Assembly: GCA_021782175.1 (NCBI GenBank)
Contig: JAJXVL010000002.1
Span: 1-43,267 of the forward strand
Source: a bacterium
Lineage (GTDB): Bacteria; Patescibacteriota; Minisyncoccia; Phycocordibacterales; PALSA-1337
Length of the DNA: 43,267 nt
Direction: 5' to 3'
Part shown: positions 3,520 to 43,064 of the stretch, piece after piece
Numbering within the stretch: the first letter of the stretch is position 1
Layout of the letters: the number at the start of each line of letters is the position of its first letter
Program-made: the position numbers and the translations under genes
Notes under the pieces: generated by a model
The model's database searches: none
Told to the model about the DNA's origin: nothing
What the model saw: the letters and a program-made list of their open reading frames with translations, nothing else

Positions 3520-3909
3520 ATGATTACCGCATTTATGCTCGGTCGCGTTATTCTAGGCCTTTATTTCCTGGAAGGCGCTTACGGACATCTCGTCAAGCCG
3601 GCTGGTCTCATCGGCTATGCCAGCTCCAAGGGCGTGAAGTCACCGAAGTTTGCTGTTATCGGTACAGGCATCCTCATGGCTCTCGGTGGCTTGTCACTTT
3701 TGCTAGGTGTCCGACCGCATTACGGCTTGGCTTTGCTCATCATTTTCCTTTTGGGCACTTCCTTCAAGATGCATGCCTACTGGAAAGAGACTGATCCGAT
3801 GGCCAAGATGGGTGACCGAATCAATTTCACCAAGAACATGGCTCTGATCGGCGCGCTCCTCATGATGTTCGCGATCGCTTCGCCTTGGGTCTACGCCCTC
3901 AATTGGTAA
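3520..3909 (+). CDS. DoxX family membrane protein
   Basis: 129 aa with four hydrophobic helices. N-terminal LGRVILGLYFLEGAYGHL and the KMHAYW region are DoxX/DoxD-like. Confidence 0.7.
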   Translation: MITAFMLGRVILGLYFLEGAYGHLVKPAGLIGYASSKGVKSPKFAVIGTGILMALGGLSLLLGVRPHYGLALLIIFLLGTSFKMHAYWKETDPMAKMGDRINFTKNMALIGALLMMFAIASPWVYALNW

Positions 3910-3928: not shown

Positions 3929-3967
3929 AACAAAACAGCAGACGGTTCATCCGTCTGCTGTTTTGTT
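3929..3967 (+). terminator. Rho-independent terminator after the DoxX gene
   Basis: Perfect 17-bp stem AACAAAACAGCAGACGG / CCGTCTGCTGTTTTGTT with a 5-nt loop, running into a T-rich tail. Confidence 0.8.
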
Positions 3968-4014
3968 TTGAAACCTTTAGTCCCATCAATCGTATTTTAT
4001 CGGAGAGTAGTCTG

Positions 4015-4122
4015 TACCAGTGACACATTGTTCTTTTGAGCCAAAGCCGAAGGTCGTGCCGAAACAATCGATGAAGGTCCGGCAGGTTCGTTTTGTCTCA
4101 AAAGAACAATGTGTCACTGGTA
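4015..4122 (+). repeat. Hairpin element copy A: 26-bp perfect stem around a 56-nt conserved core (candidate structured RNA or MITE-like element)
   Basis: 4015-4040 pairs perfectly with 4097-4122. The core 4041-4096 matches the reverse complement of 15254-15313 at 52 of 55 positions. Confidence 0.6.
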
Positions 4123-4155
4123 TTGTATTCACTGATTAGTTAATCCTGAAAACCA

Positions 4156-4161
4156 TATAAT
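4156..4161 (+). promoter_or_regulatory. TATAAT box placing a transcription start at the base of the multi-stem element
   Basis: Exact TATAAT. The first paired nucleotide of the long closing stem (G4169) lies 7-8 nt downstream, the expected TSS distance. Confidence 0.4.
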
Positions 4162-4168
4162 CCTAAGA

Positions 4169-4277
4169 GGGACTTCAATGTTCGGTCGAAAGGACCCTGT
4201 GAGCGCGACTGGCGCGAGCATAGAGGAAATTCCCAGCAGGGAATTTCCGTGTCCTGGAGACCGAATATTGAAGTCCC
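4169..4277 (+). ncRNA. Candidate structured ncRNA of unknown family (closing stem plus three inner helices)
   Basis: - P1: 4169-4187 pairs with 4259-4277 (19 bp, including one G4180-U4266 wobble that is only valid on the + strand).
- P2: 4191-4195 pairs with 4251-4255.
- P3: small GC hairpin at 4203-4216.
- P4: perfect 10-bp hairpin, 4225-4234 with 4239-4248, loop AGCA. Confidence 0.45.
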
Positions 4278-4289
4278 TTGAGGATTCGA

Positions 4290-4334
4290 GGGCTATTTGA
4301 TGCTAACTATCTTAGGGCTATTCAAGGCTAACTA
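4290..4334. repeat. Two 20-nt imperfect direct repeats at 25-nt spacing
   Basis: GGGCTATTTGATGCTAACTA (4290-4309) and GGGCTATTCAAGGCTAACTA (4315-4334) are identical at 17 of 20 positions. Confidence 0.5.
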
Positions 4335-4367: not shown

Positions 4368-5138
4368 TCAGTTGTTCCTCGGTATCGTCACATGCTGTTC
4401 ACCGAAAACTCCTGGCGCTACCGCGTATTTCGGAAAATAAATAGTAATCTCGTAGTCCGTGAAGGTGAAATTCTGGAAATTATCAGCCACTGGTGCCGTC
4501 CCATCATCCAGGATGCTTTGCGAGAGGTGACCGTTTGACGCCTGAGTCAGGGTGTCAGTCAGTTGAGACTTGGCTAAGGCTGATAATTTGGTCAGCCAGT
4601 CTGGCTGGTTAGGGAAGAGATCAGCTAGAGTCATCATCATACCGGTTTTTTCGTCGAAATTGAAAGTCTGCAATTCTTGATGACCATTGGCGCCACCGCT
4701 ATAGGAGTCATAACGCTCAATGAAGCTGATATAGTGCCCGTTTATTTGGGCGGGTTGCCAAGAAGCTATGAATGAGTAAGCACTTGGTGCTAGCTCGGCC
4801 AGAGGATCACCCGTAGCTTTCCTCGCGGCCTCGCTCGAAGCTACCTCAGCCCGGAAGTTTGCCAGGCGGCTTGTAGTCGAGGAAGCAATCATCTTATTCC
4901 AGGCGGCCGGTAGAGACGAAAACTGTGGGTATTCTACATTGACGATAGGTGAGGAGGTTGCTGTCTCGTGAATAGAAACAATTTGCATCGGTATCGTCGA
5001 GGTGTTGGAAACTGCGGTTTGAGTGGCAGGAGCCGAGGTCAGCGGGGTAGCGTATTGCGCACTGATGAAGTAAATACCTGTTAGCAAACCGATCAAGAGG
5101 ACTAGAATCACGATCAAACTGGTAGTGGATATTTTCAT
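4368..5138 (-). CDS. Membrane-anchored DUF3298/DUF4163 (RsiV-like extracytoplasmic domain) protein
   Basis: 256 aa with an N-terminal TM helix. YPQFSS, TFNFDEKTGMMMTLADLF and the C-terminal YEITIYFPKYAVAPGVFG match my recollection of the DUF4163 + DUF3298 pattern. Confidence 0.65.
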   Translation of the reverse strand: MKISTTSLIVILVLLIGLLTGIYFISAQYATPLTSAPATQTAVSNTSTIPMQIVSIHETATSSPIVNVEYPQFSSLPAAWNKMIASSTTSRLANFRAEVASSEAARKATGDPLAELAPSAYSFIASWQPAQINGHYISFIERYDSYSGGANGHQELQTFNFDEKTGMMMTLADLFPNQPDWLTKLSALAKSQLTDTLTQASNGHLSQSILDDGTAPVADNFQNFTFTDYEITIYFPKYAVAPGVFGEQHVTIPRNN

Positions 5139-5191
5139 GAAATGATTGTATCTCGCTTTGCTGGTGCTGGCAAAGAATCTTCGTAGCGCAG

Positions 5192-5197
5192 TATAAT
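5192..5197 (+). promoter_or_regulatory. TATAAT box 7 nt upstream of ATG 5205 (leaderless-type promoter)
   Basis: Exact TATAAT with a 7-nt spacer (aagattt). Confidence 0.5.
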
Positions 5198-5204
5198 AAG
5201 ATTT

Positions 5205-7568
5205 ATGTCTAATATTACTTTGACCGGTTTGTCAGCGACCGAAGCTGCCAAAAGATTGGAGACCTACGGTCCCAATGTTATCGAAGAGAAGCGCAAGTCA
5301 CTCTGGAAGCGTTTGATTCATTGGTTATTGTCGCCGATGTCGCTCATGTTTATTGCGGCTGGTGGTTTGTCATATTGGTCCGGCGAGGTCAACGATGCCA
5401 TCGTTATTGCTGTTCTTTTTCTCACTAACATTGGCGTGAGTATCTGGCATGAAGCCAAAGCTGACACGGCCCTGGAAAAGCTCAAGGCCAAATTGGCTGT
5501 TACCGTCAAGGTTTTGCGTGGCTCAGACTGGGTATCTTTGCCGGCTGCCGAACTAGTCCCTGATGATATTTTGGAGCTATCCACCGGTGACTTGGTGCCA
5601 GCCGACATTCTCTTCTTGGATGTGCGCAATGTCACCGCCAATGAGGCCTCCGTGACTGGTGAATCTCTCCCCAAACAAAAAGCCGTCAATGATACTGGTT
5701 ATGCCGGCACCTTTGTGGCCACCGGTCTAGCTCATGCTCGAGTGACGGCTACTGGCAATCGGACATATTTCGGCCAGACGCTTAGTTTGGTCGAAAACGT
5801 CCGCCGGCGCAGCCAGCTGGAAAAAGATATTTTGGCTGTTTCCAAATTCTTGTCAGTAATCAGTCTGGTGATTTTGAGTATTCTGACTGTAGTTTTGTAT
5901 ATGGCTCAGCTGCCTTTGCGGGAAATTGCTGCTCTAGATATCTCAATGTTAATCGCGGGCATTCCGGTGACTTTACCGACCATTATGACGCTCATTATTT
6001 CCGCTGGGGTGGTGGCTCTGGCAGGCCAAGCCGTCATTGTCCGACGTTTGTCAGCTCTAGAAGATCTCGCCAATGTCAATCTGCTACTTTCTGACAAGAC
6101 TGGTACTTTGACGGAGAACCGCATCATTGTGACCAAGATGGCGGCCCTGGATGAGAAGCTCTCAACCACGGAGATTTGGAGTTTGGCCACGGCGGCTGCT
6201 CCGCGTCCCAATAACAATCCGCTGGATATTGCGGTGTTGAACAAGGCTACGGAGTTGAATATCACCCCGCTGCCGGTGATTGACTTCGTGCCTGGCGATT
6301 CAGAGCGCAAACGCACTACGGTCTGGCTGGATTGGCAGGGGATCAAGCGGGTGGTTTCCTTTGGGGCGCCGCAGACTATCCGTGCCCTTTCCACTATGTC
6401 GGCCGATTTGGCCGCGCGTTATGATGCCCTCGTGGCTGAGGCGGCCAGTGGCGGTTTCAGGGTCCTCTCTCTAGCTTGGGGTAATACCGAAACCGAAGCC
6501 GCGCTGGCGCCTATCGCTGTCTTTTTCCTGGCTGATGCTGTGAGGCCCGAAGCCGGACCGACTGTGTCTTTCATGAATCAGTACGGTATCGGTGTCAAAA
6601 TGGTCACTGGCGACGGTTATGATGTCAGTGCCCATGTAGCCTCGCATCTCGGCTTGCCCGGTCGCATCGTCAAACGCGAAGAATTGGAGGCTCACCCGGA
6701 TGAGATCAAGAAAGAGTTCGAGAGTTTGGGTGGTTTTGCTGAGGTCATGCCCAAGAACAAATACGAGATCGTGATGATGGCTCGTTCAGCCGGACATGGT
6801 CATGTTGTGGCCGTGACTGGTGACGGTGTCAATGATGTACCACCAATCAAGGCTGCCGATGTCGGTATTGCTGTGTCGAATGCCGTCGATGCTCTGAAGG
6901 GTACGGCTGACATTGTCCTCACTGAACCAGGCATTTCTGTCATCAAAGACGCCATCATTGAAGCTCGCAAAATTTTTGTGCGTCTTTACAATTATTCAAT
7001 TTATCGTATTTCTGAGAGTTTCCGTCTGATCATCACGATCGCTGTGATTGGTGTACTCTTCCATACTTATCCGCTCACGCCGGTACAGATCATCCTGATT
7101 GCTCTCCTGAATGATTTGCCGATTATTACTATGGCCTATGATCGCGTCGCTGTCCCGATGGCTCCGGCGGCGGCCAATCCCAAGAAGCGCTTCACTCTTG
7201 CTACGATCTTTGGCTTGAATGGTGTGGCGAACAGTCTCTTCCTCCTCTGGTTCGCCGTTTCCTGGCTCCACTTGCCCTGGGCCGTGGTGCAGACGATGTT
7301 CTTCTTGAAACTGACTGTCTCGGGTCACATGCTCATCTATCTGGCTCACACGGAACGGCCTTGGTACTCATTCTTGCCAGCCAAGTCGATCATCTGGGCT
7401 ACTTCGCTGACACAGATCGTGGCCTCCTTGATTGCTTTCTTCGGCTTCCTCACGGCCCCAATCTCCATAGCTTATATCGTCCTAATCTGGGTCTGGTCCT
7501 TCGGCTGGATGCAGATTGGCGAGCTCTCCAAGCGCCTCTTCTACCGCTGGTTTCCGCGCACTGCTTGA
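5205..7568 (+). CDS. P3A-type (plasma-membrane H+-ATPase-like) P-type ATPase
   Basis: 787 aa.
- The N-terminus GLSATEAAKRLETYGPNVIEEKRKS resembles plant/fungal H+-ATPases.
- P-type signatures present: TGES, DKTGTLTENR, MVTGDG, GDGVNDVPPIKAADVGIAV.
- The M6 motif LLNDLPIITMAYDRV parallels ILNDGTIMTISKDRV of plant AHA2. Confidence 0.8.
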   Translation: MSNITLTGLSATEAAKRLETYGPNVIEEKRKSLWKRLIHWLLSPMSLMFIAAGGLSYWSGEVNDAIVIAVLFLTNIGVSIWHEAKADTALEKLKAKLAVTVKVLRGSDWVSLPAAELVPDDILELSTGDLVPADILFLDVRNVTANEASVTGESLPKQKAVNDTGYAGTFVATGLAHARVTATGNRTYFGQTLSLVENVRRRSQLEKDILAVSKFLSVISLVILSILTVVLYMAQLPLREIAALDISMLIAGIPVTLPTIMTLIISAGVVALAGQAVIVRRLSALEDLANVNLLLSDKTGTLTENRIIVTKMAALDEKLSTTEIWSLATAAAPRPNNNPLDIAVLNKATELNITPLPVIDFVPGDSERKRTTVWLDWQGIKRVVSFGAPQTIRALSTMSADLAARYDALVAEAASGGFRVLSLAWGNTETEAALAPIAVFFLADAVRPEAGPTVSFMNQYGIGVKMVTGDGYDVSAHVASHLGLPGRIVKREELEAHPDEIKKEFESLGGFAEVMPKNKYEIVMMARSAGHGHVVAVTGDGVNDVPPIKAADVGIAVSNAVDALKGTADIVLTEPGISVIKDAIIEARKIFVRLYNYSIYRISESFRLIITIAVIGVLFHTYPLTPVQIILIALLNDLPIITMAYDRVAVPMAPAAANPKKRFTLATIFGLNGVANSLFLLWFAVSWLHLPWAVVQTMFFLKLTVSGHMLIYLAHTERPWYSFLPAKSIIWATSLTQIVASLIAFFGFLTAPISIAYIVLIWVWSFGWMQIGELSKRLFYRWFPRTA

Positions 7569-8017: not shown

Positions 8018-8350
8018 ATGTCCAAAGTTATCAATGCAACTCAAGCAGATTTCGAAAAGGTAGTTCTCAAGTCCAAACTGCCAGTCCTGGTGGATTTCTG
8101 GGCGCCTTGGTGCGGGCCGTGCCGGATGATGGCCCCGATCCTCGATGAGTTTTCTGTGGAAATGGACGGTAAGCTCAACATTGTCAAAGTCGATGTGGAA
8201 GAACCGACCAACCAGATGCTTGCCGCTCAGTATGAGATTCGTAGCATTCCCAACATGAAGCTTTTCAAGGACGGTAAGGTGGTTCATGAATTTGTCGGTC
8301 TCCGACCCAAGGAAATGTTGGCTTCAGAGATTGCCGAGGTCTTGGCCTAG
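8018..8350 (+). CDS. trxA: Thioredoxin
   Basis: 110 aa with the WAPWCGPCR active site and typical thioredoxin length and layout. Confidence 0.9.
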   Translation: MSKVINATQADFEKVVLKSKLPVLVDFWAPWCGPCRMMAPILDEFSVEMDGKLNIVKVDVEEPTNQMLAAQYEIRSIPNMKLFKDGKVVHEFVGLRPKEMLASEIAEVLA

Positions 8351-8988: not shown

Positions 8989-9347
8989 ATTATGCCACTC
9001 AACTAGAGAGAGATGTCATGATCCGTGTGCGGACGATATATTTTTTGCGTCTCCTCACCAGTCATCGGGCTATCCAGGCGGTACTTCTCACGGCTTCGGT
9101 TTTCTTCACGGCCGTCATTGTCTCGGTACCGAATGTTATCCATAACATGTCTCGTTTGCCGGGGTTCATGGACTATTTGAATTATCTGTACGCGGCTTTC
9201 ATGCATACTTCGTTCTATGTCGAATCCAGCCTGATTCTAGCTGTGTCCATTGCCATTTGGTTGGTGGTGGATCTCTGGCGTGGACTCAAACCACAACGTC
9301 TCCTCAAAATCCTCAGCGGCCGTGCTGGACGACTAGCAGCTATGTAG
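8985..9347 (+). CDS. Membrane protein, putative anti-sigma factor (paralogue of 20340-20756)
   Basis: Its ATGA start/stop overlap with the sigma gene indicates coupling. 120 aa with two TM segments. It shares a GF(M/A)DYL motif and overall architecture with the protein downstream of the second ECF sigma. Confidence 0.5.
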   Translation: MNYATQLERDVMIRVRTIYFLRLLTSHRAIQAVLLTASVFFTAVIVSVPNVIHNMSRLPGFMDYLNYLYAAFMHTSFYVESSLILAVSIAIWLVVDLWRGLKPQRLLKILSGRAGRLAAM

Positions 9348-9420: not shown

Positions 9421-11142
9421 ATGGCTTCTATCTCTGAAATCCAAAAAGAAATCCAAAAAATAATCGAGGGTGAAGTAGAAAACGATGCGGAAGCTCTGAC
9501 TCTGGCTTCGCATGACGCCAGTCTCTTCGAGGTCAAACCGCAGGCAGTGATTCATCCCAAGAATACTGCTGATATCAAGAAGCTGGTAGCCTTCGTCAAT
9601 CAACAGAACAGCCAGGCCAAGCCGCCGAAGCTTACTCTGACCGGCCGCTCGGCCGGGACAGATATGTCCGGCGGACCGCTCTCAGAGTCACTCATCGTTT
9701 CTTTTACCCGTCATTTCAATCATATTCTAGGGGTCAAAGCCGAACCTCAAGGATCTCTCGGCGGCTCTTTCCCTGATGTGGCCGTGACGGGTTACGCCAT
9801 CACTGAGCCGGGTGTTTATTATCGCGATTTTGACAAAGAGACTCTCTCGGTTGATGGTCAGATTATGCCCAGTTATCCGGCTTCGCGAGAACTATGTACG
9901 GTTGGCGGCATGGTCGCCAATAATTCTGGCGGTGAAAAGACTTTGACCTATGGCAAAACTGAACAGTATGTTCGACGCGTCAAAATGGTTTGTGCTGATG
10001 GGGAAGAATATGAGTTCAAGCCGCTCTCGTTCGATCAGGCCGCCAAGAAACGCGAACAAAACAATTTTGAAGGAGAGATTTATCGCCGCATGCACGAACT
10101 TTTGGAGCAGAATGAAGAAGTTATCGCCAAGGCCAAACCAATCGTTTCCAAAAATTCCTGCGGTTATTATCTCTGGGACATTGTCGATCGTGCAAAGAAT
10201 ACTTTTGATCTGACCAAGGTCATTGTTGGCTCCCAGGGCACTCTGGGCCTCATCACGGAGATCGAATATGCCCTGGTCAAACCCAAGCCTTTCTCGCATC
10301 TCTTGGTCGTTTTTCTGAATAGTCTAGATCAGTTGGGGGAGACGGCCACGCGCATCTTGCAATTCAAGCCGGAAAGTTTCGAGTCATACGATGATCAGAC
10401 TCTCAAGGTCGCTTTCAAATTCTTGCCTCAACTGATGAAGCAGATGGGCGGTAACTTGGTTACGCTCGGCCTGGAATTCGTACCGGAAATGCTGGCTGTG
10501 CTCGAAGGTGGTGGTCTGCCCAAGCTGGTGCTCATGGCCGAATTTACGGCTGATACTGATGCCGAAGCTCTCGCGGCGGCCCAAAATGCCAGAGCCTCGC
10601 TGGTTGATCTGCATGAGAGGATGCGCGTGACCAAGACAGCCAACGATGAGCACAAATACTGGGTCATTCGCCGCGAGAGTTTCAATATGCTGCGCAAGCA
10701 TATCCACGGTGTGCGCACGGCGCCGTTCATCGATGATTTTGTGGTGCCGCCTACATCCTTGCCTGAATTTCTGCCGAAGCTCTACGCAGTGCTGGACCCT
10801 TACAAGAAAGATCTGACCTATACGATCGCCGGCCATGTCGGTGATGGCAATTTCCATATCATCCCGCTCATGAATCTGGCCTTGCCGCGTGCTCATGAGA
10901 TCATCAGAGAACTATCAGTCAAAGTTTACGAGCTGGTTCATCAGTTCCACGGTTCCATTACCGGTGAGCACAATGATGGCATCATTCGCACTCCTTTCGT
11001 GAAGATGCAGTACGGGGAAGACATGTACAAACTCTTCGTAGAGACCAAGAAGATTTGGGACCCGCGAGGCATCTTCAATCCCGGCAAAAAGGTCGAGGGC
11101 ACTCTCGAATATGCTTTCGATCATATCGTCAAAAGCTCATGA
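9421..11142 (+). CDS. FAD-binding oxidoreductase (FAD-linked oxidase, GlcD / D-lactate dehydrogenase-like)
   Basis: 573 aa with an FAD_binding_4-like N-terminal half (GRSAGTDMSGGPL, GSQGTLGLITE) and the C-terminal FAD-oxidase motif HVGDGNFH. No TM segments. Confidence 0.8.
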   Translation: MASISEIQKEIQKIIEGEVENDAEALTLASHDASLFEVKPQAVIHPKNTADIKKLVAFVNQQNSQAKPPKLTLTGRSAGTDMSGGPLSESLIVSFTRHFNHILGVKAEPQGSLGGSFPDVAVTGYAITEPGVYYRDFDKETLSVDGQIMPSYPASRELCTVGGMVANNSGGEKTLTYGKTEQYVRRVKMVCADGEEYEFKPLSFDQAAKKREQNNFEGEIYRRMHELLEQNEEVIAKAKPIVSKNSCGYYLWDIVDRAKNTFDLTKVIVGSQGTLGLITEIEYALVKPKPFSHLLVVFLNSLDQLGETATRILQFKPESFESYDDQTLKVAFKFLPQLMKQMGGNLVTLGLEFVPEMLAVLEGGGLPKLVLMAEFTADTDAEALAAAQNARASLVDLHERMRVTKTANDEHKYWVIRRESFNMLRKHIHGVRTAPFIDDFVVPPTSLPEFLPKLYAVLDPYKKDLTYTIAGHVGDGNFHIIPLMNLALPRAHEIIRELSVKVYELVHQFHGSITGEHNDGIIRTPFVKMQYGEDMYKLFVETKKIWDPRGIFNPGKKVEGTLEYAFDHIVKSS

Positions 11143-12230
11143 AGCCTTTTCTCAAACAAAAAAAGACCAGCAAACTGCTCGGTTGGTTGCTAGCTGGATT
11201 GTTCGCGGTCATCGCCACACCTTGGGTGGTTTCAGCGCATGAAGTTTATGTTTTGTCCTCTAGTCAGATCAACCAAGCTCTGGCCATGCCATCATTCAAT
11301 CTGTGGACGGAGATTGTCAGCCATCTTAGTCAATTCGGCTTCTGGGCTTTCATCGGTATCTTGTTGGTCTTCGGTATTTTCTGGATTTCCACCATGCGTT
11401 TCCTAGAAAGACGGCTCGATCCTTTTTTCTTGAAAATAAGACCTTATGCCACTTTCATCGCCCGCTTAACTATCGGTCTGTCGTTCTTGGCGGCAGCTTT
11501 CTATCAGGCTATTTATGGCCCAGAATTGCCCCTAGTAGCCAATTTTGGCCCCTACGCCGGCCCAATTACTCTGGCTCTAGTACTTATCGGTCTGGCGATT
11601 GTCGTGGGCTTCTATGCGCGTTTGGCGGCTCTAATAGCTCTTGTCCTGTATGGAATATTGGCCTACGAACACGGCTCGTATATGCTGACCTATGTCAATT
11701 ATCTCGGTGAGATCATTGTGCTTCTGATCCTCGGGGCACATAGTCTCAGTTTGGATCGGCTCTTCCGCAGGAAGTCAGCTGGTTCACCTGTCTCTGTCCG
11801 GCCAGCGTGGTTTCGTAATTTTGCGGATTATTTGAAACCTCGCAGTTTCGCCATCCTGCGAGTACTTTTTGGTACGGCTCTGATCTATGCTTCGGTCTAC
11901 GCCAAAATTTTGCATAATGGTCTGGCGCTGCTCACTGTGGAACAATATCATCTCGACAAGCTTCTGGGATTTGAACCGCACTTCCTGATCATGGGCGGAG
12001 CTATCGTGGAGATTTTGATCGGGTTGTTCTTCATTCTGGGTATTGAGATTCGCTTCACTTCGCTCTTCCTCCTTTTCTGGTTGAGCTTGTCGCTGTGGTT
12101 CTTCGGGGAAGTGGTCTGGCCGCATTTGATCTTGATCGGCATCCCGATCGCTTATGTCTTCTATGGTTATGATGACTATTCGGTGGAAGGATATTTCTTC
12201 CGAAACAAGAAATACGAGCCGGTTTTGTGA
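11139..12230 (+). CDS. Polytopic membrane protein, apparently two DoxX-like halves in tandem
   Basis: I moved the start to ATG 11139, which overlaps the TGA of the oxidase gene (ATGA). The first 28 codons of the track ORF lie inside the oxidase CDS. About 363 aa: an N-terminal signal/TM, then two roughly 150-aa helix bundles, each resembling DoxX (inference by eye). Confidence 0.55.
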   Translation: MKPFLKQKKTSKLLGWLLAGLFAVIATPWVVSAHEVYVLSSSQINQALAMPSFNLWTEIVSHLSQFGFWAFIGILLVFGIFWISTMRFLERRLDPFFLKIRPYATFIARLTIGLSFLAAAFYQAIYGPELPLVANFGPYAGPITLALVLIGLAIVVGFYARLAALIALVLYGILAYEHGSYMLTYVNYLGEIIVLLILGAHSLSLDRLFRRKSAGSPVSVRPAWFRNFADYLKPRSFAILRVLFGTALIYASVYAKILHNGLALLTVEQYHLDKLLGFEPHFLIMGGAIVEILIGLFFILGIEIRFTSLFLLFWLSLSLWFFGEVVWPHLILIGIPIAYVFYGYDDYSVEGYFFRNKKYEPVL

Positions 12231-14597: not shown

Positions 14598-15146
14598 ATG
14601 AAGCATTACATTGTCGAAGAGAATCCTTTGTCGCATCTATTATTTAACAACACCAAACTGGCTTGGTTCTGGCTGGTAGTGAGGTTGTACGTAGGCTACG
14701 AATGGCTCTCCGCTGGTTGGGAAAAGCTCCACGATCCGACTTGGACCGGTGCCCAAGCCGGTACGGCCCTGGGCGGTTTTTTGAATGGGGCCGTAGCCAA
14801 GACGGCCGGTCTTCATCCGGATGTGCAGAGTTGGTACGCTTGGTTTCTGGAACATGCCGTGATGAATCATCTGGGACTCTGGGCCCATCTGGTTACTTAT
14901 GGTGAGTGTTTGGTCGGTGTCGCTCTGATTATTGGTTTGTTTACCGGCATCGCGGCTTTCTTCGGGCTTTTTATGAACTTGAATTATCTCTTGGCCGGCA
15001 CGGTCAGTACCAATCCGGTCCTGTTTGTTTTGGCTATTGGTATTTTGATGGCTTGGAAGGTGGCAGGCTTCATCGGTTTGGATCACTGGGTTTTGCCACG
15101 TCTGGGTACTCCTTGGCAGAAGTTTGAAACAGGCACGGTGAAGTAA
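14598..15146 (+). CDS. DoxX/DoxD-like family membrane protein
   Basis: 182 aa. WFWLVVRLYVGYEWLSAGWEKL and the following helices resemble DoxD/MhqP-type DoxX proteins. Confidence 0.65.
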   Translation: MKHYIVEENPLSHLLFNNTKLAWFWLVVRLYVGYEWLSAGWEKLHDPTWTGAQAGTALGGFLNGAVAKTAGLHPDVQSWYAWFLEHAVMNHLGLWAHLVTYGECLVGVALIIGLFTGIAAFFGLFMNLNYLLAGTVSTNPVLFVLAIGILMAWKVAGFIGLDHWVLPRLGTPWQKFETGTVK

Positions 15147-15207: not shown

Positions 15208-15231
15208 CAACATATGTCCTGACGAAGTGAA

Positions 15232-15335
15232 AGAGCCCTAGCATATCCTTTTGTACCAAAACGAACCTGCCAGACCTTCACCGACTGTTTCGGCACGACC
15301 TTCGGCTTTGGTTCAAAAGGATATGCCAGGGCTCT
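15232..15335 (-). repeat. Hairpin element copy B (inverted relative to copy A)
   Basis: A 22-bp stem, 15232-15253 with 15314-15335, has a single A15240-C15327 mismatch that becomes a U-G wobble on the minus strand. The core 15254-15313 is the reverse complement of the copy A core. Confidence 0.6.
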
Positions 15336-15382
15336 CTCGTGTGTCGGAGCAAGAATCAGGTGTGAGGATGAGGGTCTATGCA

Positions 15383-16066
15383 CTACCACGGATACGGTTC
15401 GTCGTTGTACCAGAACCCGCCGGTGGGTGGTCGGGAAGTGGCCAGTTTGAATATTTGTGTAGCCGCTTCCGCCGGTGTGATCGGGGCTTCTGAGCCACCC
15501 ATATCTGTCTGAACCCAGCCGGGATGCACAGCTGAAACAATCGTGCCGTTGCCCTCATGGAGCAGTCGAGCAGCCAGAGTGCGTACATACATATTGAGAG
15601 CCGTCTTGGAGATTTTGTAGGCCGGATAATGATAAGGTTCATGCGAATCATTCAAGTGATCCATTTCCTGGAGCGAGCCGGCCTGTGAAGAGAGGAACAC
15701 AACATGTCCTGATTGATTGAGTAAGGGCAGAAGTTGCTCGGTAAAATCAGCAGTACCGATCAGATTGACTTCTAGGGTCTGACGCAGTTTGTCGGGAACT
15801 AGGTGAGTTTCTTCTTCATCGCACAGAATGCCAGCATTGTTGATCAGGACATCTATAGTTATGTTGTCTTTCTTGAGATTTTCAACACAATTCTTGATAC
15901 TCGCTTCATCAGATAAGTCCAAGGCATAATGTTTGCTTACTCCTTGTGGCAAGTCTGAGGTGCTCTGGTAAGTGGTGCCAATAACCCGCCAACCTTCAGT
16001 GGCAAATTTTTCGGCCAGAGCCCGGCCAATACCGCGGCCGACACCGGTGATCAAAACATTTTTCAT
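15383..16066 (-). CDS. Short-chain dehydrogenase/reductase (SDR) family oxidoreductase
   Basis: 227 aa with the N-terminal TGVGRGIGRAL Rossmann motif, NNAG, and the catalytic YxxxK (YKISK). Confidence 0.85.
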   Translation of the reverse strand: MKNVLITGVGRGIGRALAEKFATEGWRVIGTTYQSTSDLPQGVSKHYALDLSDEASIKNCVENLKKDNITIDVLINNAGILCDEEETHLVPDKLRQTLEVNLIGTADFTEQLLPLLNQSGHVVFLSSQAGSLQEMDHLNDSHEPYHYPAYKISKTALNMYVRTLAARLLHEGNGTIVSAVHPGWVQTDMGGSEAPITPAEAATQIFKLATSRPPTGGFWYNDEPYPW

Positions 16067-21541: not shown

Positions 21542-21570
21542 AAAACCGACTGTCTGAACAGTCGGTTTTT
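21542..21570. terminator. Bidirectional rho-independent terminator (small ORF / aspS)
   Basis: AAAACCGACTGT ctga ACAGTCGGTTTT has an 8-bp GC-containing stem flanked by an A-run and a T-run. Confidence 0.75.
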
Positions 21571-28104: not shown

Positions 28105-28140
28105 AATGGCCCCAAGCCGTCAATTGACGGCTTGGGGCCA
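28105..28140 (+). other. Perfect 16-bp hairpin between rpsP and the KH-protein gene (attenuator or processing candidate)
   Basis: ATGGCCCCAAGCCGTC aatt GACGGCTTGGGGCCAT, with no U-tract on the + strand. A second 9-bp hairpin lies at 28156-28182. Confidence 0.5.
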
Positions 28141-28206
28141 TCTGTTACAATTCACTGTAGTACAGGTTCGTTGTCTGTACGACTCTTACCAGCTATTTCA
28201 CTGAAT

Positions 28207-28557: not shown

Positions 28558-28596
28558 TTCGTAATTCCTCTTTTCTTCTCAAGAATTATTGGGAAC

Positions 28597-28625
28597 AAAA
28601 AGCGAACTTTTAAAGTTCGCTTTTT
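28597..28625. terminator. Bidirectional rho-independent terminator
   Basis: AAAAAGCGAAC ttttaaa GTTCGCTTTTT. It overlaps the last codons of the minus-strand DoxX gene. Confidence 0.7.
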
Positions 28626-29065
28626 GTTTGGGTGCCACCGGGCAAAACAATCGTCGGTGTGGCAAAAGCGTCATGACGCATGAAGCGGTCCAGGGTGAAC
28701 CAATCAGAACCGTTGAGCCAGATGGTTAGGGTGGCTGCCGCGATGCCGAAGTCGCGTACGCCAGTCGCATTCAGGCCGACAATGACAAAAATATCGATAA
28801 TATGCAGAGCCAAGAGAGCAGATGTCCATCGTGTGAAGAATCCCAACAGCAAGGCTGAACCCAGGATTATTTCGAAAATGGCGTTCAAAAAAACAATAGT
28901 AGTCACGGCCAGACCAGAGAAGTTAACAACACTATCAGGTACGTAAGCTACCCATTGATTGGGATCGGCAATCTGATTGATACCAAACCACAAGAAGACC
29001 AGAGCAATGCTCAGTCGCAAGACCACCGGGGAGAATAGACGCAGATTTTTCATAAAAGAAGTCAT
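28610..29065 (-). CDS. DoxX family membrane protein
   Basis: 151 aa with four helices. LRLSIALVFLWFGINQI and the GFFTRWTSALLALH pattern are typical of DoxX. Confidence 0.75.
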   Translation of the reverse strand: MTSFMKNLRLFSPVVLRLSIALVFLWFGINQIADPNQWVAYVPDSVVNFSGLAVTTIVFLNAIFEIILGSALLLGFFTRWTSALLALHIIDIFVIVGLNATGVRDFGIAAATLTIWLNGSDWFTLDRFMRHDAFATPTIVLPGGTQTKSEL

Positions 29066-43005: not shown

Positions 43006-43020
43006 AAAGTTACTCTAAAC

Positions 43021-43046
43021 AAAAAACAGCCCGTGGGCTGTTTTTT
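43021..43046. terminator. Bidirectional rho-independent terminator after rpoD
   Basis: AAAAAACAGCC cgtg GGCTGTTTTTT. Confidence 0.8.
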
Positions 43047-43064
43047 GTAAATCACTAAATCTTA

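Follow-up and report, generated by a model that had tools for sequence, protein, structure and literature searches.

Two intergenic spacers of the 43,267-nucleotide window analyzed here (the whole stretch of contig JAJXVL010000002.1, read on its forward strand) carry long hairpins of one family: copy A, a complete hairpin of 108 nt (4015..4122), has its core-sense strand on +, and copy B, of 110 nt (15229..15338), has it on -. In both of these copies, whose DNA can be read directly, a conserved 72-nt module sits at the exact apex of an 18-19-bp helix that is specific to its locus. As a tentative account, the module may be a dispersed palindromic repeat, similar in the broad sense to repetitive extragenic palindromes (REPs) or transposable elements of the miniature inverted-repeat type (MITEs), that has been copied into the tips of hairpins and folds as RNA within the transcripts of neighboring genes; its mobility, its preference for hairpin tips, its transcription and its role at the RNA level are all features that we infer from sequence.

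A conserved module on locus-specific stems

The repeat finder delimits the arms of copy A at 4015-4045 and 4092-4122 (31 nt, 97% complementary, of which 26 bp form a perfect stem) and those of copy B at 15229-15260 and 15307-15338 (32 nt, 91% complementary as DNA). The block common to both, at 4033..4104 on the + strand in copy A and at 15248..15319 on the - strand in copy B, is an inverted match with 65 of 72 positions identical (90%), and within the window the 26-mer CCAAAGCCGAAGGTCGTGCCGAAACA, from the 5' side of the core, has exactly two occurrences, against 0.00 expected by chance. Read on their core-sense strands, the two copies align without gaps over 108 columns; the module occupies columns 19-90 and, within it, the 55-nt core occupies columns 27-81, with 52 of 55 positions identical and three differences, all of them transitions. 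Repeat finder and alignment thus bear out an earlier note on this DNA, which had described a perfect 26-bp stem in copy A and the same core with three substitutions in 55 nt in copy B. From its base upwards, the module of copy A consists of a 6-bp helix (CTTTTG/CAAAAG), three variable pairs, P2-P4 and an 18-nt apical loop. The inner stem common to both copies is this 6-bp helix, one pair shorter than the 7 bp (CTTTTGA/TCAAAAG) given in the earlier note. The three pairs inside it (columns 25-27 with 82-84) differ between the copies, each copy having one mismatch there, and the pair 26/83 is maintained despite a change of both its bases.

Outside the module, identity falls to chance level, with 4 of 18 positions shared on the 5' side and 6 of 18 on the 3' side; the outer stems are nevertheless paired in each copy, as had been claimed. 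In copy A the alignment and the pairing analysis place the 5' arm of this locus-specific stem at 4015..4032 and its 3' arm at 4105..4122 (both +), with 18 of 18 positions paired. Both copies are identical across every same-species occurrence found, copy A being present in five same-species contigs. Neither a promoter nor a flank common to the two copies was found, and a consensus scan gave no convincing promoter at either of them.

Computed on a structure written by ourselves and on two sequences only, 97.6% of the pair cells are paired over 41 pairs, and 13 pairs are changed on both sides, 12 of these 13 lying in the outer stem, which cannot be aligned; when the 3' partner is slid by 1-3 columns as a control, only 34-46% of the cells remain paired. 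Copy A folds with a minimum free energy of -59.3 kcal/mol on the + strand (z -10.7) and -57.7 on the - strand, and copy B reaches -64.4 kcal/mol on its sense strand (-) and -53.2 on its antisense strand (+), a difference of 11 kcal/mol; the z-scores of both copies are about -11, and none of 200 shuffled sequences folded as well. As RNA on the - strand, the stem of copy B comprises 25 consecutive pairs, two of them G·U, of which the 22 bp noted earlier are the Watson-Crick subset. The G·U pairs of the two copies, five cells at four positions, all fall on the core-sense strand (+ in A, - in B), and there are no A·C cells; taken by itself, this strand bias has roughly p = 0.03-0.06. The two substitutions in the apical loop are both A to G and retain wobble pairing, turning the hexamer AUCGAU of copy A (4067..4072, +) into GUCGGU in copy B (15285-15280 on the - strand), so that both hexamers would be self-complementary as RNA, whereas as DNA only the first would be a palindrome. 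The strand evidence is modest but points consistently toward pairing at the RNA level, and the two generic marks of a structured non-coding RNA, compensatory change and strand-specific G·U pairing, are both found, on two sequences. The asymmetry between G·U and A·C favors folding as RNA over a pure DNA cruciform; of the two possibilities named in the earlier note, RNA or cruciform, it is the former that gains.

A third copy came to light through a protein search with the module translated in all open frames, which found the predicted protein P0200 in a 3347-nt contig of the ENA. The first 23 residues of P0200, MKQNEPAGPSSTVSARPSALFQK, are what the module gives when read in antisense in frame 0, with 21/28 identities to copy A. 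The remainder is a pilin-like protein with N_methyl and Laminin_G_3 domains, whose N-terminal methylation motif lies at residues 54-76, and judging from its sequence the true start is probably Met48, the gene having been called 47 codons early. Since the called N-terminus reads the module in antisense, it represents a third genomic copy, located about 70 nt upstream of the pilin-like gene and antisense to it, which makes at least three in all; the refutation that the earlier note had tied to an absence of further copies, for which it had asked that the genome be checked, falls away. This copy is known through the protein only, and its sequence is given here by back-translation. Its core is a mixture of A-type and B-type variants, in which columns 25-27 and 82-84 could again pair, by way of different bases. 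Beyond CAAAAG, its back-translated flank differs from those of both A and B and matches A at 8 of 14 determinable positions, where about 4 are expected.

In about 70 kb of readable same-species DNA there are two copies, the third being the one known via protein, and neither covariance-model nor exact 18-mer scans found the family outside one species-level lineage. The covariance model R1, built from copies A and B, found no third copy in 151 kb, including about 70 kb of the same species and, from three family-level relatives, about 67 kb; from genus-level relatives, another 23 kb or so, it returned only unrelated long hairpins, with stem-only scores on both strands. Exact 18-mers had 63 matches among GTDB genomes, mostly in unrelated high-G+C metagenome-assembled genomes (MAGs), and 38 among JGI metagenomes, all of them chance, as were the 1, 0 and 14 matches of exact patterns among IMG/VR viral contigs. 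No match to 4005-4300 was obtained by BLAST in phage and plasmid collections. Elsewhere in about 90 kb of related DNA, nothing matches the outer stem of copy A; the outer stems have no match among viral contigs, where a 17-base pattern with one degenerate position had two, judged chance. In Rfam 15, nothing in the whole window or in the relatives reaches a gathering threshold; an E-value cutoff brings up generic models of long hairpins only, microRNA precursors that score 18-23 bits, far under their thresholds of 85-190. A sliding-window RNAfold inventory of hairpins was too noisy in the high-G+C relatives. Literature searches on non-coding elements of Patescibacteria, or the Candidate Phyla Radiation (CPR), yielded only the paper on TIGR-Tas (PMC12045711), and such elements appear to be almost undescribed in this group.

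Possible insertion into hairpin tips and other explanations

If the module is indeed a repeat that was copied into hairpin tips, the 72 nt would have moved between loci later than the divergence of the flanks, landing on the tips of pre-existing long palindromes, which are plentiful at the gene ends of this genome. The composite would then be transcribed with neighboring genes and fold as RNA on the core-sense strand, where its 25-26-bp duplex might act as a 3'-end barrier or an RNase III site, and its conserved apex may serve to bind either a protein or another loop. The fall in identity from 65/72 in the module to 4/18 and 6/18 outside speaks for this course of events, as do the long, perfect palindromes with almost no loop that occur in the window at 28106-28141, 28594-28628, 43019-43048 and 3929-3967. 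So does turnover at the orthologous site, where the congener L141 has a different hairpin in place of copy A, in a spacer that is otherwise unalignable. Because the outer stem of hp2, a neighboring hairpin family described below, is nearly unchanged at 85% identity, unrelated stems around a 95%-identical core are hard to obtain by co-duplication and drift. The position of the third copy, antisense to the pilin-like gene, makes the orientation relative to neighboring genes a mixed one, as expected of an inserted repeat. Should the module integrate at hairpin tips, it would do so by a structure-directed mode of insertion.

Several observations weigh against such an insertion. No palindrome in an empty, uninserted state was seen. 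A classical target-site duplication is absent from both A and B, the flanks being inverted instead (ATTGTT before and AACAAT after copy A, CATATC before and GATATG after copy B). By Pfam, the window contains no insertion sequence, transposase, reverse transcriptase, integrase, recombinase, HUH nuclease or Nop-domain protein, and the gene tables for the rest of the approximately 70 kb of the same species suggest no transposase- or recombinase-like gene. Only three copies are known, two of them with readable DNA and hence with verifiable pairing of the flanks. Typical terminators of this genome have an A-tract/T-tract form, which the outer stems of A and B do not share. As three variable pairs, with 26/83 compensated, lie inside the module, its sharp boundary could be one of functional constraint, and the likeness of the third copy's outer arm to that of A (8/14) would fit a slow divergence of old paralogs. 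Transcription of the elements, finally, is a postulate of the proposal.

Slow divergence is what one would see in a family of small structured RNA genes, old paralogs in which the apical module is functional and the basal helix has drifted to saturation through compensation; we regard this, the main rival, as possible, if somewhat unlikely, and if it is true the family would be a new, CPR-specific class of RNA. The earlier proposal of selection for the hairpin itself survives in this form as one of two viable readings, the copying of a 72-nt module into pre-existing palindromes being the other. By analogy with REPs and Correia elements, which are repeats that act as RNA hairpins, the two need not be fully exclusive. 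Paralogy of RNA genes would account for the doubly changed pairs (13/41 in a structure with 97.6% of its cells paired, 26/83 among them inside the conserved module), for the location of every G·U on one strand, for the persistent self-complementarity of the loop hexamer (AUCGAU to GUCGGU) and for the likeness to copy A that the outer arm of the third copy may have kept; the sibling family hp2, moreover, covaries at 18 of 45 pairs and is better conserved than the adjacent coding DNA. It sits poorly with the lack of a promoter or flank common to the copies, with their mixed orientation to neighboring genes, with the absence of copy A from the orthologous site of the congener, and with the failure to find a copy in about 67 kb of three family-level relatives, in about 23 kb of genus-level relatives or in the genome and metagenome scans. 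A 55-nt core that is nearly frozen, P2-P4 included, above a saturated P1 would also be odd for drift alone. The long perfect inverted repeats could, on the other hand, extrude as cruciforms and serve as a protein-recognized DNA hairpin, a site of recombination, inversion or nicking whose binding surface is the module. A 5.8-kb inversion in very close relatives, with breakpoints within about 15 nt of hp2 and of a further hairpin family, fam3, is the chief point in favor of this; the tendency of assemblies to break within the elements would be in keeping with it as well. The inversion involves hp2 and fam3, however, and not the family of copies A and B; the stems of copy B are imperfect as DNA (91%) and perfect as RNA; the loop of copy A contains the palindrome ATCGAT, whose counterpart in copy B is no palindrome as DNA; and the window holds no gene for a recombinase or HUH nuclease nearby by Pfam. 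We consider such a DNA element unlikely.

The combination of a constant core with variable, self-paired arms also recalls a guide-like hairpin RNA, in which a constant scaffold carries a variable 18-19-bp duplex that gives specificity, in the manner of a short hairpin RNA (shRNA) or of TIGR-Tas; TIGR arrays do show variable palindromic stems around conserved loop motifs, and TIGR-Tas is reported from CPR bacteria (PMC12045711). The copies are not arranged in a tandem array, however, and have no variable spacers in the loop, box C/D is missing (CGAUGA in A, CGGUGA in B, no CUGA), no Nop- or Tas-like protein is found in the window by Pfam, and the stems have no meaningful match among viral contigs, which makes a guide RNA very improbable. 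A broader form of the idea fares a little better and is still decidedly unlikely: a modular hairpin RNA of the CPR, with a constant scaffold and a swappable duplex of about 18-26 bp, processed by RNase III and shRNA-like, or else a mobile module that recognizes DNA or RNA structure and integrates at the apex of hairpins, with neither sequence specificity nor a duplication of the target. From a codon of the apical loop that is ATG in copy A and GTG in copy B, and so a start in either, reading frames open at 4073-4141 (+) and 15279-15205 (-), which share the N-terminus MKV(R/W)QVRF, have unrelated tails and are probably meaningless. That these frames, of 22 and 24 codons through the 3' arm, encode a small peptide is the least credible of the explanations and extremely improbable. 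The frame is open in both copies and the change from ATG to GTG retains a start, but no Shine-Dalgarno sequence stands where it could serve, the peptides bear no relation to each other in their C-terminal two thirds, four further frames are also open, and a protein search in that frame found no homologue.

Compared with known systems, the element would seem by analogy to behave most like the hairpin-forming class of MITEs and REPs, and it is a member of no family tested. Like the Correia/NEMIS elements of Neisseria, ERIC, RUP and BOX, it is a dispersed intergenic sequence in the range of about 100-150 nt that forms a long hairpin when co-transcribed, has no gene of its own and stands in mixed orientation to its neighbors; Correia hairpins are substrates of RNase III and influence the stability of mRNAs. 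Unlike it, those MITEs have long, conserved inverted repeats and direct target-site duplications, whereas here the ends of the 72-nt block have only the 6 bp CTTTTG/CAAAAG in common, each locus has its own sequence in the 18 bp outside them, and no duplication occurs. REPs and bacterial interspersed mosaic elements (BIMEs) are likewise extragenic palindromes at the 3' ends of genes that stabilize at the RNA level; REPs, however, are imperfect palindromes of 20-40 nt that occur in high copy number, are marked by a GTAG or CGTC head and rely on a RAYT transposase, whereas the present element has 108-110 nt and no such head, and Pfam detects no Y1/HUH transposase in the window. The insertion sequences (ISs) IS1397 and ISKpn1 set a precedent for integration specifically into the loop of a palindrome, which a module at hairpin tips requires; IS1397 differs in being a full IS with a transposase, a target-site duplication and sequence-specific REP targets, none of which is seen here. 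Integron attC sites resemble the family as imperfect palindromes (57-141 nt) at gene 3' ends that keep structure over sequence and are used as folded single strands; they have conserved R''/R' boxes at the outer stem ends and a variable center, the reverse of copies A and B, which have no GTTRRRY. In TIGR units, reported from the genomes of CPR bacteria (Patescibacteria), the stems are 'variable but consistently palindromic' around conserved loop motifs, as they are here; TIGR-Tas differs in its tandem arrays, the Nop-domain tas gene, box C (RUGAUGA) and box D (CUGA), each occurring twice, and variable loop spacers of 8-12 nt (PMC12045711), while copies A and B are solitary and constant over the entire 55-nt loop region, with neither box C/D nor a Tas gene. 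Against this background, the family adds an uncommon architecture, in which the top is conserved and the stem is locus-specific.

A number of identities were rejected, in agreement with the earlier statement that the core is of no recognized RNA family, REP type or IS end; there is no Rfam match and no IS, REP or attC signature. As an intrinsic terminator, which would call for a short G+C-rich stem, a loop of 3-8 nt and a U run directly 3' of it, the element has too much between its arms (46-56 nt), followed by UUGUAUUC in A and ACUUCGUC in B. A terminator scan called neither of the whole hairpins, flagging only a 5-bp stem in the core of copy B, which agrees with their having been set apart from ordinary terminators; the reason given at the time, the lack of a U-tract, holds for an uninterrupted run, though copy A is followed by TTGTATTC, with 5 T in 8 bases. 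The integron attC site is set aside for its opposite pattern of conservation and for want of an integrase in the window by Pfam, and the TIGR or box C/D unit for its boxes (CGAUGA in A, CGGUGA in B, no CUGA), the constant loop, the solitary copies and the missing Nop domain. Judged by eye against known motifs, the hammerhead ribozyme (CUGANGA...GAAA) would have the wrong order and spacing; domain V of group II introns finds its AGC/GUU triad, in a hairpin of 44 rather than 34 nt and with the wrong bulge; SRP/4.5S RNA offers only a short resemblance, AGGUCCGG; and the sarcin-ricin loop has a 10-nt match, in one hp2 copy only. The outer stems as guides or spacers find nothing locally, and their viral matches were judged chance. 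Homology of copies A and B to fam3 is rejected as well, the alignment scores being within those of shuffled controls.

Two neighboring hairpin families and an inversion

Next to copy A lies hp2 (4168..4278, +, with an extended stem at 4160-4285), a Y-shaped hairpin that constitutes a separate repeat family, with no hit in Rfam. It forms a three-way junction of about 113 nt with an invariant GAGCGCGACUGGCGCGAG arm. Two further same-species copies lie in L119, at 8227-8339 (+) and at 5147-5259 (-), the latter with a different outer stem around the same core, and two congeners have orthologues (L141 3549-3661; L140 2172-2284, -). Among five sequences, both bases have changed in 18 of 45 pairs, and the main stems contain no broken pair. 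The outer stem includes a compensated indel, and folding favors the sense strand over the antisense strand by 10-14 kcal/mol. In comparison with a congener (85% identical), hp2 is identical at 107 of 113 positions and the DoxX gene next to it at 338 of 390, while the rest of the spacer is unalignable. On this sequence evidence hp2 is a strong candidate for a new structured RNA. Two hp2-like Y-shaped elements with very long stems occur at 9089-9234 (-) and 15869-15981 in L123, which is related at the level of the family, with an ATPase about 67% identical in amino acids; one of them fills the entire spacer between the DoxX and DUF3298 genes, in the opposite orientation, and the second falls within the beginning of an open reading frame called with 390 aa.

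The second family, fam3, is a 122-nt hairpin with a perfect stem of 29-32 bp and a 64-nt core (L141 3398-3519, L140 2311-2432). The congener L141 has the same gene order and terminator as the window, with fam3 between the terminator and hp2, exactly in the position of copy A. L140 and L143 have in inverted orientation a 5.8-kb block that extends from the gene for glucosamine-6-phosphate isomerase to DoxX, with junctions within about 15 nt of fam3 and hp2; this is read from the orders DUF3298-hp2-fam3-GlcN isomerase in L140 and DoxX-terminator-flank of a 147-aa gene in L143, compared with L119 and the window. L141 and L143 differ in arrangement while being 98% identical. One CPR genus thus has at least three unrelated families of long hairpins (about 110-120 nt) at gene ends, namely the family of copies A and B, hp2 and fam3. 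Rfam contains none of the three. Compensatory change keeps them paired, and in hp2 at least, conservation exceeds that of the coding DNA nearby; hairpin families are swapped at orthologous sites and adjoin an inversion breakpoint. Taken together, the three may deserve more follow-up than the family of copies A and B alone.

Genomic setting

Among relatives with a name, the best ones for the flanking proteins come from MAGs labelled Patescibacteria or Paceibacterota, and the same DNA is also found in the ENA contig ERZ27236847 k141_481910 and in the NCBI MAGs GCA_021833565.1 and GCA_027325705.1. Copy A lies in a convergent spacer of 458 nt between a DoxX gene (3520-3909) and a DUF3298 gene (4368-5138), and the terminator of the DoxX gene, a perfect bidirectional palindrome of 17 bp (3929..3967, no strand assigned), sits between that gene and copy A; L141 and L143 have its orthologue, in which the changes are compensated. 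The neighbors of copy B are a DoxD/DoxX gene (14598-15146), to which it is antisense, and an SDR gene (15383-16066), which has the same sense and ends 45 nt before it. The earlier note had linked both copies to the DoxX genes upstream of them. This link is weak: copy B is antisense to its DoxX-family neighbor, the third copy stands by a pilin-like gene, and the congeneric DoxX orthologue is accompanied by an unrelated hairpin. As the window holds four genes of the DoxX/DoxD type (3520-3909, 14598-15146, 28610-29065 and the C-terminal part of 11055-12230), a position beside one of them means little, and the association is probably coincidental. These genes sit among redox and metal genes, including NDH-2, two P-type ATPases, thioredoxin, ArsR, an FAD oxidase and ECF sigma factors.

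Independent assemblies from several samples (Logan, ENA) end at the elements: L067, L068 and L122 at 4029 and L069 at 4093, within copy A; L073 and L075 at 15283, within copy B; and L114 at about 4296. Ends of this kind could result from extra copies, from heterogeneity or from a drop in coverage at strong hairpins, and breaks inside the elements thus fit either a repeat or a strong hairpin.

Among the other palindromes of the window, the terminators at 3929-3967, 21542-21569, 28594-28628 and 43019-43048 are near-perfect and of bidirectional design, with an A-tract that pairs with a T-tract and loops of 2-5 nt. At 28106-28141, between the genes for S16 and a KH-domain (KhpA-like) protein, lies a palindrome free of A- and T-tracts, whose perfect 17-bp arms enclose a loop of 2 nt; it overlaps the listed TTG start of the KH-domain gene and is an example of an 'empty' long palindrome. 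In L142, a relative with about 84-87% identity, an insertion of about 950 nt (1928-2877) separates a MacB-type permease gene from an SDR gene and carries, on the opposite strand, a 229-aa gene without a Pfam hit; in the window the permease and SDR genes are adjacent.

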